Origin: Patescibacteria group bacterium
GTDB taxonomy: Bacteria > Patescibacteriota > Patescibacteriia > Patescibacteriales > UBA12465
Reading direction: 5' to 3'
Assembly: GCA_034002925.1 (NCBI GenBank)
Contig: JAVEZP010000005.1
Span: 1 to 62,785, forward strand
Length of the DNA stretch: 62,785 nt
Positions within the stretch are counted from its first letter, which is position 1. The number at the start of each line of letters is the position of its first letter. A program made the position numbers and the translations under genes. A model generated the notes under the pieces. It ran no database searches. It was not told the origin of the DNA and saw only the letters and a list, made by a program, of their open reading frames with translations. Positions 60,655 to 62,785 of this stretch are shown in pieces.

Positions 60655-61317
60655 TTAATCTAGCAAATACTTTGCCTGAAAGACATCGCGCACATTTTTA
60701 AATATATAAGGTAACTTAACCCCAGCCCGTACAAACTCAGCTGTGCTATGTAGACCACTTAGAATCGCTACAAATTCAATGGCAGGCTGATGATTTTTAG
60801 CAGCCGCCAAATCATGTTCGATGCTGTCGCCAATAAAAATAGTCTTTTCCGGTCTAAAGCCGGCTCCATTCCAAAAATGATTAAATACTGCTGGATCTGG
60901 TTTGCCGGTTCCTAATTCAGGGGTGTGAATGTGAGTGAAGATATTAATATCTATACCCTGCTCCTTAAGGCGATACTCTAAACTAGCGCGATCACGATTG
61001 GTGGCAATCCCTAGTTTACAAATATTCGATAACCTCTTTAAATCATCGGATAGGCCTAGTTGAACAGGATATTTTTGAGCACAACTTATTTGGTAGAAAT
61101 GCTCAATCACTTCCCTGTCTTTTTTAAGAGGCCAATTCAATTCTTCCGCCAGTATTGGAATTAAAGAATGTTCAAAATTATGACCCCATAAATCTTGAAC
61201 CATTCTAAAAGTAGGGCGTTTTACACCAGCTACTTGAGCCGCTTTAATAAGCGAGTTAATGCCCACAGGAATTGAATCCACCAAGGGTCCGTCAAAATCA
61301 AAAATTAAATCTTTCAT
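60655..61317 (-). CDS. HAD family hydrolase
   Basis: IFDFDGPLVDS, KPDP, IGDS..HD. Confidence 0.88.
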   Translation of the reverse strand: MKDLIFDFDGPLVDSIPVGINSLIKAAQVAGVKRPTFRMVQDLWGHNFEHSLIPILAEELNWPLKKDREVIEHFYQISCAQKYPVQLGLSDDLKRLSNICKLGIATNRDRASLEYRLKEQGIDINIFTHIHTPELGTGKPDPAVFNHFWNGAGFRPEKTIFIGDSIEHDLAAAKNHQPAIEFVAILSGLHSTAEFVRAGVKLPYIFKNVRDVFQAKYLLD

Positions 61318-61478: not shown

Positions 61479-61505
61479 AAAAAAGTAGACATTTCTGTCT
61501 ACTTT
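61479..61505 (-). terminator. terminator of the 133-aa gene
   Basis: AAAGTAGACA-GAAA-TGTCTACTTT with a T-run on the minus strand. Confidence 0.7.
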
Positions 61506-61513
61506 AAGAAGTA

Positions 61514-61915
61514 TTAGAACTCTGGAATTATTAATTTTGGATAATAACTCTTAGCCCAAACACTTCTTGTGCATACACCATATATCTGAGATACGGGCGT
61601 AGTATTTCCATTCGGGTAAACAAATGAATAACCCACCCTAATCCTAAGATATTGAATTTTTTGACGGGAAATATTGTATTCTTTACTTCCCCAGCCTTTC
61701 TTTTTTATCATGAAGTAAACTTCAGATGAAAATGAATCCGGCTTTTCATAGATCTTATACAGAGCCCCCGACTCTGTTTTGAAGACAAGCATGCTAAAGG
61801 CATCTTTTCCCAGCATGCCCGGACTAGCTAAGTCTTTTAAATCTAACTCTTGCAGCTCTCTCGCTACATAATAACCATAACCTTGTTTTGCGGTTACATT
61901 ATATATTTTTTCCAT
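61514..61915 (-). CDS. hypothetical protein downstream of the hammerhead and hairpins
   Basis: ORF with an AAGGA upstream of ATG and its own terminator. Confidence 0.7.
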   Translation of the reverse strand: MEKIYNVTAKQGYGYYVARELQELDLKDLASPGMLGKDAFSMLVFKTESGALYKIYEKPDSFSSEVYFMIKKKGWGSKEYNISRQKIQYLRIRVGYSFVYPNGNTTPVSQIYGVCTRSVWAKSYYPKLIIPEF

Positions 61916-61928
61916 GATCCTTTATTTT

Positions 61929-61998
61929 AGTTAAAAATTGAATTAGTTATTAAATCTACTAATTGTTTAATAAACTTAATAACTAACCCAATTTAACT
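61929..61998 (-). ncRNA. long RNA hairpin (28 contiguous bp with 5 G-U, plus 4 bp)
   Basis: 61935-61962 pairs with 61967-61994; the non-Watson-Crick positions are G-U only on the minus strand. Confidence 0.7.
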
Positions 61999-62058
61999 TT
62001 CTTGGCAATGAACTAATAGAATACTTAATTATATTAAATATTTTTTATTAACATCTCT

Positions 62059-62162
62059 ATAAACCCCCTAAAACCCATAGAGCTTAGTGAAGAATAAATC
62101 ATTTTAAGGAGAGAGTAATTAAAATAATTTATTCTTTGCTCTACGGATTTTAAAGGGCTTAT
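62059..62162 (-). ncRNA. long rod hairpin (25 bp + 18 bp)
   Basis: 62138-62162/62059-62083 and 62119-62136/62090-62107; 6 G-U pairs, all on the minus strand. Confidence 0.75.
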
Positions 62163-62164
62163 TT

Positions 62165-62215
62165 TCTTTTTCGTCCTTTTGGACTCATCAGGTGGAGCAC
62201 ACACTCCACGAAAGA
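62165..62215 (-). ncRNA. type III hammerhead ribozyme
   Basis: UCUUUC^GUGGAG-UGUGUG-CUCCAC-CUGAUGA-GUCC-AAAA-GGAC-GAA-AAAGA: complete core and stems I-III. Confidence 0.9.
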
Positions 62216-62415
62216 GAGAAGTTTTTAAACCATAGGATAACTTCTCGAACCAATGTAAGATTTTGCTTAGGTTCTTACAACCAGAAGGCTCTGCTTCCTT
62301 TTGGCTCACCACGTTGCAGGTGACGCAATCAGGTTGTTTTGGAAAGCTCAACCAAACTTAAGGATCTTTTAGTGAATTTCTCTTCACCTTAATCGGGGAT
62401 CAGCCGATGAAATTC

Positions 62416-62784
62416 CTAGTGTTTAGAAAACCTCTTAACGAGGTCTTCTATTTGATAATCTGCCACTTCGGATGGTGAAACTCTTTTCCACCAATCCCCA
62501 TAACAGATCCCCATAGGAATTTGAAATTTTTTTATTACCTCTGCTGCTGACTTTCTGTCAGCAGTTTTTTTTAGGATAATTTTCCACACTTTTGCGTGCT
62601 GGTTTCTCCAGCATTCCGTTTGATAGTAATCTACCACGATAAGGACTTCCTTATCGTAGTACATTATCTCCTTCCCGGCATAAATTTTGTTTTCAAGGTC
62701 TCCCTCGCCCACTCCCTGGGCACGGAGTTGATCGCCGATACCATCGAAGCTATCCACTTCGACGACAACTGAGTGAGAGATTTT
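62416..62784 (-). CDS. hypothetical protein, 5' end truncated by the window edge
   Basis: Frame stays open upstream of the GTG at 62757 to the window end. Confidence 0.6.
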   Translation of the reverse strand, partial: KISHSVVVEVDSFDGIGDQLRAQGVGEGDLENKIYAGKEIMYYDKEVLIVVDYYQTECWRNQHAKVWKIILKKTADRKSAAEVIKKFQIPMGICYGDWWKRVSPSEVADYQIEDLVKRFSKH

Positions 62785-62785
62785 T

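Follow-up and report, generated by a model that had tools for sequence, protein, structure and literature searches.

Clustered hammerhead ribozymes in prophages flank variable genes and gene blocks and are active in vitro, and the cutting of a long transcript into gene-length mRNAs was proposed for them in the accessible text of Perreault et al. (2011; PMC3088659). Retrozymes, as outlined in the available part of another account (PMC7761336), are non-coding elements with LTRs of ∼350 bp, a PBS, a PPT and TSDs. The role of bacterial self-cleaving ribozymes is described as largely elusive in the available text of Weinberg (2019; PMC6765202). The window analyzed here is the whole 62,785-nt stretch of a Patescibacteria contig, and one hammerhead is located near its end on the minus strand. 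We assign a probability of about 0.65 to the reading that this interval is the tail of a variable array, in which a hammerhead would cut, a rod with a leader-pairing loop would terminate transcription and a separate promoter-hairpin-gene unit would follow.

As read from the sequence, the array is composed of a TrmB-like gene, a divergent promoter, a leader, cargo genes split by a hairpin, a hammerhead and a boxA-like site, and a rod with the loop CUCUCUCC. A scaffold gap of 100 N marks the end of the window, and contig C5 continues beyond it for 1.6 kb. The true size of the scaffold gap is 286 nt, as given by one 7758-nt contig of run X5 that spans both sides, and completion across the gap yields a 189-aa product for the upstream cargo gene. 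Searches with the 189-aa protein returned only the protein itself. The features are listed from head to tail.

C5 from 64031: divergent TrmB-like gene, which runs onto contig C3 and is followed by a large ORF
C5 63790–63818: leader promoter, TTGACA-17-TATACT
C5 62886–63790, minus strand: structured non-coding leader of ∼0.9 kb, with GGAGAGAG at 63676–63683 and 63075–63082
62416–62785, minus strand: 3′ part (122 codons) of the 189-aa orphan cargo gene, whose start lies in the scaffold gap past the window
62326–62415, minus strand: trailer with two weak possible hairpins by folding; loose contig ends at 62412/62419
62254–62325, minus strand: uncatalogued small motif, defined by a comparative pattern, with no Rfam match
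62216–62246, minus strand: P0 hairpin, kept before nearly all hammerhead copies
62165–62215, minus strand: type III hammerhead (core and covarying family), last unit of the array, with no boxA-like site after it
62061–62160, minus strand: rod 1, array-closing terminator-like hairpin of 43 pairs with a weak U-run (3 U)
62108–62115, minus strand: apical loop of rod 1, CUCUCUCC, the complement of leader GGAGAGAG
62003–62033, minus strand: TATAAT (62028–62033) and boxA-like GTTCATTGCCA (62003–62013), with no good −35
61930–61997, minus strand: rod 2, an AT-rich hairpin in a 5′ leader; its family is a separate one that precedes unrelated small orphan genes
61918–61922, minus strand: AAGGA ribosome-binding site, outside rod 2
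61514–61915, minus strand: gene for a soluble, beta-rich protein of 133 aa, from a small family with no name
61482–61505, minus strand: intrinsic terminator-like hairpin of the 133-aa gene

The arrays resemble those of Perreault et al. (PMC3088659) in that several hammerheads flank variable genes, for which that account proposes a long transcript giving gene-length mRNAs. Unlike the arrays in its accessible text, they occupy a fixed place in the chromosome of Patescibacteria, start with a TrmB-like gene and a long leader, are punctuated by a hairpin-hammerhead-boxA-like unit and end in a closing rod that is complementary to the leader. The prophage and integrase context of that account (PMC3088659) is not shared, and no integrase adjoins the arrays here. 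The head-to-tail loop match is likewise absent from the account as far as its accessible text goes (PMC3088659). No paper on such arrays in Patescibacteria was found in a literature search with thin coverage of subscription journals, and the array architecture is real and apparently unpublished.

Integron cassette arrays contain variable orphan genes behind one promoter, with structured repeats between the genes and differences between strains. All of these properties are found in the present arrays, but the head is a TrmB-like gene, no integron integrase is present at the locus (PF00589 matches lie elsewhere) and the repeats, with their G-U bias, look like RNA elements rather than attC sites. 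In rRNA operons, boxA near the start supports NusB antitermination. The arrays would be analogous in having boxA-like sites near the start and after internal processing points in genomes that encode NusB (5/5 genomes), and would differ in ribozyme processing, in protein-coding cargo and in a site that is mostly absent at the last unit. Loop-loop antisense control is exemplified by ColE1 RNAI/RNAII, pIP501 attenuation and the C-rich loops of S. aureus RNAIII. The rod similarly presents a hairpin loop complementary to 5′ leader loops, but it is encoded kilobases downstream of the leader on the same strand, the match is only 8 nt and several leader copies are present.

The gap between the 133-aa and 189-aa genes (61916–62415, 500 nt) is the longest of the 57 gaps in the window, 53 of which are at most 250 nt, and stands out as the sequence-only reading had stated. 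The next-longest gap (486 nt) contains two tRNAs. The gap folds with a z score of −10.9, and none of 100 shuffles folds as well. The signal comes from rod 1 (z −9.9), rod 2 (z −9.2) and the hammerhead (z −3.5). The run of about seven hairpins proposed for 62216–62415 folds at chance level as a whole (z −0.9; 34 of 200 shuffles equal); comparative support is found for the 62216–62246 hairpin and the motif at ∼62254–62325, but not for the rest. The other elements that had been named, namely a hammerhead (type III core, covarying family), both rods, the AAGGA site, the 133-aa ORF and its terminator, are all present. Most of the listed parts exist, but together they do not form a single module that feeds the 133-aa gene. 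Rfam at the gathering threshold identifies only tRNAs in the window. SRP, twister, pistol, hatchet, HDV-like and 6S RNAs were compared by eye with the trailer and rods using consensus features and were rejected, with no Rfam support.

The hammerhead is built from stem III (UCUUU/AAAGA), the UUC site, stem I (GUGGAG/CUCCAC), CUGAUGA, stem II (GUCC/GGAC) and GAAA. The core CUGANGA, GAAA and an NUH site occur in the type III order, the three stems around the core covary and a core-adjacent mismatch is absent (criteria as in the available methods of PMC3088659). Cleavage is predicted after UUC, between 62210 and 62209. No other type III pattern match is found in the 820-kb genome. The RF00008 score is 23 bits, under the gathering value of 48.5, which is a curation cut-off and not a catalytic criterion; the best relative scores 45.2. 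The hammerhead family comprises 27 copies from 13 genomes and the near-identical strain locus L019, with 99.0% of 405 cells paired and two-sided changes at 10 of 15 pairs. Its covariation is 0.631, compared with 0.173 in shuffled alignments and at most 0.148 in slid ones, the shuffle contrast being inflated by the relatedness of the copies. Loops 1 and 2 of hammerheads can contact each other, and in the 27 copies a UG in loop 1 and the last A of loop 2 are invariant. Stem III of the window copy is short and A-U rich and is absent from the MFE fold. The core is intact and the family is real, and self-cleavage is predicted; comparable clustered hammerheads cleaved in vitro (PMC3088659, accessible text). 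Core variants are observed in L046, L047, L051 and L052, with CCGAUGA in several copies and long stem II inserts in some, and copy 1 of L019 has a G-U pair at the base of stem II.

Hammerheads recur in relatives in an ordered arrangement. RF00008 matches are found in 15 of 148 genomes of the family, often in tandem, and the unit model R1 matches 23 of the 151 genomes in the order, spread over eight families. Relatives in Patescibacteria contain up to five hammerhead units per array, and several hammerheads on one strand flank variable genes; this assembly contains a single copy. Nine of the ten regions that were read begin with a TrmB-like gene in divergent orientation and a leader homologous to the one here, and the punctuation between variable genes consists of a hairpin, a hammerhead and GTTC(A/T/G)TT. 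Cargo genes of L047, L048, L049 and L052 match Csx3-AAA, CorA-associated DHH, Csx16, STIV B116-like, Mvol_0529 family, MoxR/vWA and DEAH helicase proteins, and several cargo families recur across these genomes in different order. None of 15 congeners was matched by the hammerhead model, the TrmB query or the 133-aa family query.

By their titles, TrmB-bearing records come from Patescibacteria, including Falkowbacteria and Moranbacteria, and several carry a generic gammaproteobacterial label. In the group of L046, L047, L048, L049, L052 and L055, a large gene with a GNAT domain follows TrmB in several genomes and ftsK is located at or near the 3′ end of the array. Rfam at gathering returned only tRNAs and DUF805b in the regions of eight relatives. 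The DUF805b motif lies inside cassette leaders (L046:11266–11300 and L049:6475–6509), and a DUF805b-like copy near C5 62926–62950 was recognized by motif likeness, not by an Rfam run. DUF805b and other ribozyme-associated motifs may be described in Weinberg 2017, of which part was accessible (PMC5737381).

Strain comparison reveals a difference of one whole cassette. L019 is 98.2% identical to the window over 1470 nt and contains two hammerheads, located in an 88-nt direct repeat, that flank an extra 283-aa gene. This gene sits behind the leader piece that precedes the 189-aa gene in the window. The 283-aa gene was found neither in this assembly nor at this place in X5, and the 7758-nt contig of X5 keeps the order of the window without the cassette. 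The earlier statement that no second ribozyme is visible is thus true of this assembly but not of its near-identical strain. Contigs branch at the two edges of the repeat, 62164 (X1 and X2) and 62251 (X1), and at 62412/62419 (X1, X2 and X4); loose ends at 62168, 62205, 62025 and 62041 were set aside as possibly from other organisms (88% likeness). Judging by the sequences, strains of this species have either gained or lost an entire cassette flanked by ribozyme repeats. Hammerhead copies are more alike within genomes than between them (0.88 vs 0.71), but the nearest copy lies in the same genome for just 19 of 35, a pattern that suggests local duplication as well as exchange. Elsewhere in the window, at 61136–61292, runs X2 and X5 contain a diverged 155-nt segment of equal length in the 5′ part of a HAD gene.

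The P0 hairpin is 92% identical to that of G253, which belongs to another family; the locus was therefore probably acquired. The 62254–62325 motif consists of a GUCACC hairpin, a GGUGAGCC..AAGCAGAG hairpin and a hairpin with a YUAAGCAAAA loop, the last of which is common to G159. Its pattern occurs in 5 of 316 genomes and in none of the control, with a hammerhead downstream in three of the five (window; L118, L119, L121, L122). The trailer (62326–62415) has no homologue found outside the species. It accompanies the motif in strains with another upstream gene, and at 62412/62419 the contigs of X1, X2 and X4 have different sequence ahead of it.

BoxA-like sites are common after internal hammerheads and rare after the last ones. 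A match of at least 8/9 follows 30 of 46 non-terminal hammerheads and one of the seven terminal ones, against a background of 2.6%. The Fisher test gives p 0.016, a value that kinship among the copies makes too favorable, and two of the seven terminal copies are from this species; two of the 46 are stray pattern matches outside arrays, some copies were missed, and the scoring pattern was shaped on these loci. L019 has a boxA-like site after its internal hammerhead and none after the last. By analogy with rRNA operons, we infer that antitermination may be reloaded at the boxA-like site after each cut.

Rod 1 is found at the array end in nine of the ten relatives read. In its alignment, two-sided changes occur at 21 of 36 consensus pairs and the loop CUCUCUCC is fixed in 10/10 copies. 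The rod model R2, which favors the loop on which it was built, matches 15 of 151 genomes, all 15 with the CUCUCUCC loop and 13 of them outside the training set. The alignment cells contain 31 G-U and 6 A-C pairs and the sense fold is the more stable in 19 of 25 copies, which argues that rod 1 acts as RNA in the array direction. By eye, 22 of 25 rods end in at least four U, compared with three U in the window copy. Rod 1 likely ends transcription, judging from its terminator-like form. Of the 25 rods, four were found to be preceded by a hammerhead, 12 by a looser double-hairpin pattern and nine by neither element; a TG-extended −10 lies just upstream of five. The double hairpin (a P0-like stem and a YUUCC-stem-AGAAG internal loop) occupies the hammerhead slot 60–170 nt before rod 1 in L046, L048, L049, L050, L051, L052, L054, L055 and L106, and is a candidate processing element. 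R2 matched none of the 80 viral loci tested (120 listed), and matches to a loose rod pattern in viral contigs were dismissed as chance.

The rod loop is complementary to a leader motif at the opposite end of the array. Among the leaders, GGAGAGAG is the 8-mer with the widest occurrence (16 of 18), a rank it shares with the overlapping AGGAGAGA. In 18 kb of leaders, GGAGAGAG occurs 43 times in sense and twice in antisense orientation, compared with ∼0.3 expected (25 occurrences per 1.64 Mb in this genome). It lies in many leaders between stem arms that vary while the motif is kept, and the leader of this genome contains two copies. A duplex of CUCUCUCC with GGAGAGAG has a computed energy of −12.7 kcal/mol. 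L250 contains the sole rod with a changed loop (CUCUCUCU), and both of its leader copies are changed at the partner base (UGAGAGAG). The result is a U opposite a U, with both partners altered at one and the same end pair, which is thereby lost; the change is correlated, not compensatory, and no true compensatory change was found for the loop match. By local folding, the leader motif is mostly unpaired in only about half of the copies, and some leaders hold their own CTCTCTCC. G266 contains hammerheads and lacks GGAGAGAG in its leader. Among 20 distant TrmB loci examined of the 32 returned, 12 have no GGAGAGAG in the first 1.4 kb; the long-hairpin finder was too noisy for use on these 20. The pairing of the rod loop with the leader loop is the least certain step, and on this sequence evidence we rate it at slightly below even odds. 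A KOPS-like DNA site was considered for the 8-mer, with ftsK often after the arrays, and is disfavored by the hairpin-loop placement and the G-U bias.

An explanation that we regard as rather unlikely is that the two loop motifs are not partners. The GGAGAGAG loops would then bind a protein or ribosomes as Shine-Dalgarno decoys and CUCUCUCC would act alone, for example by targeting other mRNAs as part of an anti-Shine-Dalgarno small RNA, or by offering a protein-binding site on an ordinary terminator. AAGGAG is a frequent sequence of the leader loops and matches the 16S end of the genome (CACCUCCUUU) perfectly, but their conserved AGAG extension matches the rod and not the 16S end. One rod faces two to four leader copies, and the TG-extended −10 before five rods suggests that rods may be made alone. 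Against these points, both motifs are concentrated at array loci in opposed strand orientation and change together in L250.

In the preferred reading of a variable array, each cut would leave an upstream mRNA with a hairpin-capped cyclic-phosphate end and a downstream RNA with a 5′-OH and a stem at its very end, and every gene block would thus become its own stable mRNA. At the window locus, P0 would be the capping hairpin. These predicted products agree with the earlier proposal that cleavage would leave the upstream mRNA structured at its 3′ end and yield a 5′-OH RNA with a long duplex. The boxA-like site after an internal cut would reload NusB/NusE antitermination; with the site usually missing behind the last hammerhead, rod 1 would be able to terminate. 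Pairing of the rod loop with the leader loop would serve as an end-of-array signal, or a released small RNA would feed back on the leader. The repeats may also act as DNA recombination points.

The sequence-only reading had instead combined the hammerhead and both rods into the 5′ region of the 133-aa mRNA, as one regulatory module controlling a toxin or defense-type protein. The parts are adjacent on the same strand, and their order is retained in L019 and X5. Moreover, transcription may continue into the 133-aa gene at this locus, given just three U after rod 1 and the poor −35 that precedes rod 2. However, the hammerhead and rod 1 close TrmB-headed arrays in relatives without the 133-aa family: rod 1 is found in 15 and hammerheads in 23 of 151 genomes, but the protein family in one of 316. 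Rod 2 and the −10 and boxA-like site ahead of it are part of a different family, whose copies follow full promoters and precede unrelated genes. A rod 2 paralogue with 74% identity lies on C2 (G000 C2:68008–68109) right behind TTGACA-17-TATAAT, and homologues are found before unrelated small genes in G005 (two), G030, G010 and G006. The seven copies show two-sided changes at 6 of 25 pairs. The spacing from TATAAT to the boxA-like site is 12 nt here, compared with 11 nt in C2 and G005, and the −35 is poor here. A search with 531 nt against 61 genomes, of the kind suggested at the outset, recovered rod 2 and short pieces but missed the hammerhead family. Covariation is found in the RNA parts, but they are not linked to the protein. 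We consider one module improbable, and rod 2 and the 133-aa gene likely form a separate promoter-hairpin-gene unit, judging from their sequence context. Further loci of the promoter, boxA-like and AT-rich rod family are L002:1500–1600 and 2180–2250, L003, L004 and L005; in G005, the rod-2-type leaders lie amid other repeats beside tRNA-like genes. Rod 2, read by eye against the attC pattern RYYYAAC...GTTRRRY, has its ends in the opposite order.

The 133-aa protein gives no indication of a toxin or defense role. Homologue searches returned one close relative besides itself and 20 matches among cluster representatives. The predicted model is soluble and beta-rich (pLDDT 89.6), and a fold search gave a best Z of 4.4 and no match, a result that establishes neither a novel fold nor a role for the protein. 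No Pfam family above the cut-off, no PHROG, PADLOC or Atlas match, no viral match at E ≤ 0.001 and no viral locus were found for the protein, and traits of small hydrophobic toxins are absent.

RNA-mediated cassette mobility, in which hammerhead-to-hammerhead RNAs would be circularized, reverse transcribed and reinserted in a retrozyme-like manner, is difficult to credit. Unit-length RNAs with ligatable ends would arise, cassettes are gained or lost at repeats, and RT genes are found elsewhere in four of five genomes. However, RtcB was not found in any of the five, the RTs and tyrosine recombinases (four of five genomes each) are unlinked to the arrays, with none adjoining one, and many units have other punctuation or several genes. 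Plain recombination between the 88-nt repeats accounts for L019 and is the simplest mobility route. A retrozyme relic, as raised by the sequence-only reading, finds no support, with ORFs inside the units and no linked RT, integrase or RtcB. Beyond 62785, in C5 and then C3, where a check for such genes had been advised, there is no RT or integrase; the leader, promoter and TrmB-like gene are found instead. The likeness to retrozymes lies in type III hammerheads that, as direct repeats, would release unit-length RNA; the difference from the elements in the available text (PMC7761336) lies in the ORF-bearing units, the 88-nt repeat and the one locus with no other copy in the genome. The RT genes of G000 are located at C11:1948–3540, with a small upstream gene, and at C14:7640–8932, both unlinked to the array. 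The C11 gene with its small neighbor looks DGR-like.

A decayed prophage or island with an inactive relic hammerhead is highly improbable: the patchy distribution (0/15 congeners for the three queries) and the prophage linkage of clustered hammerheads in the accessible text of PMC3088659 speak for it, but the core is intact with compensatory changes, the architecture is fixed and adjoins ftsK and other host genes, the regions read contain no recognized integrase or virion genes, and no rod was found in the 80 viral loci tested.

A wider and tentative proposal, which we hold to be possible though doubtful, is that control of these arrays is exerted by RNA throughout. Ribozymes would cut, boxA would reload, a loop kiss would signal the end to the polymerase or leader regardless of the number of intervening cassettes, and the repeats would provide integron-like recombination without an integrase. 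The locus adds a head-to-tail loop match, a boxA contrast and strain-level cassette change to what is described. The fixed grammar of hairpin, hammerhead, boxA and closing rod, together with natural strain variants, consists of short RNA parts that are directly testable. The matches of cargo genes to CRISPR type III ancillary families hint at what host-dependent bacteria shuffle. If true, a loop match between head and tail, with 1 to 13 kb of variable genes in between, would regulate a variable-length operon in a new way.
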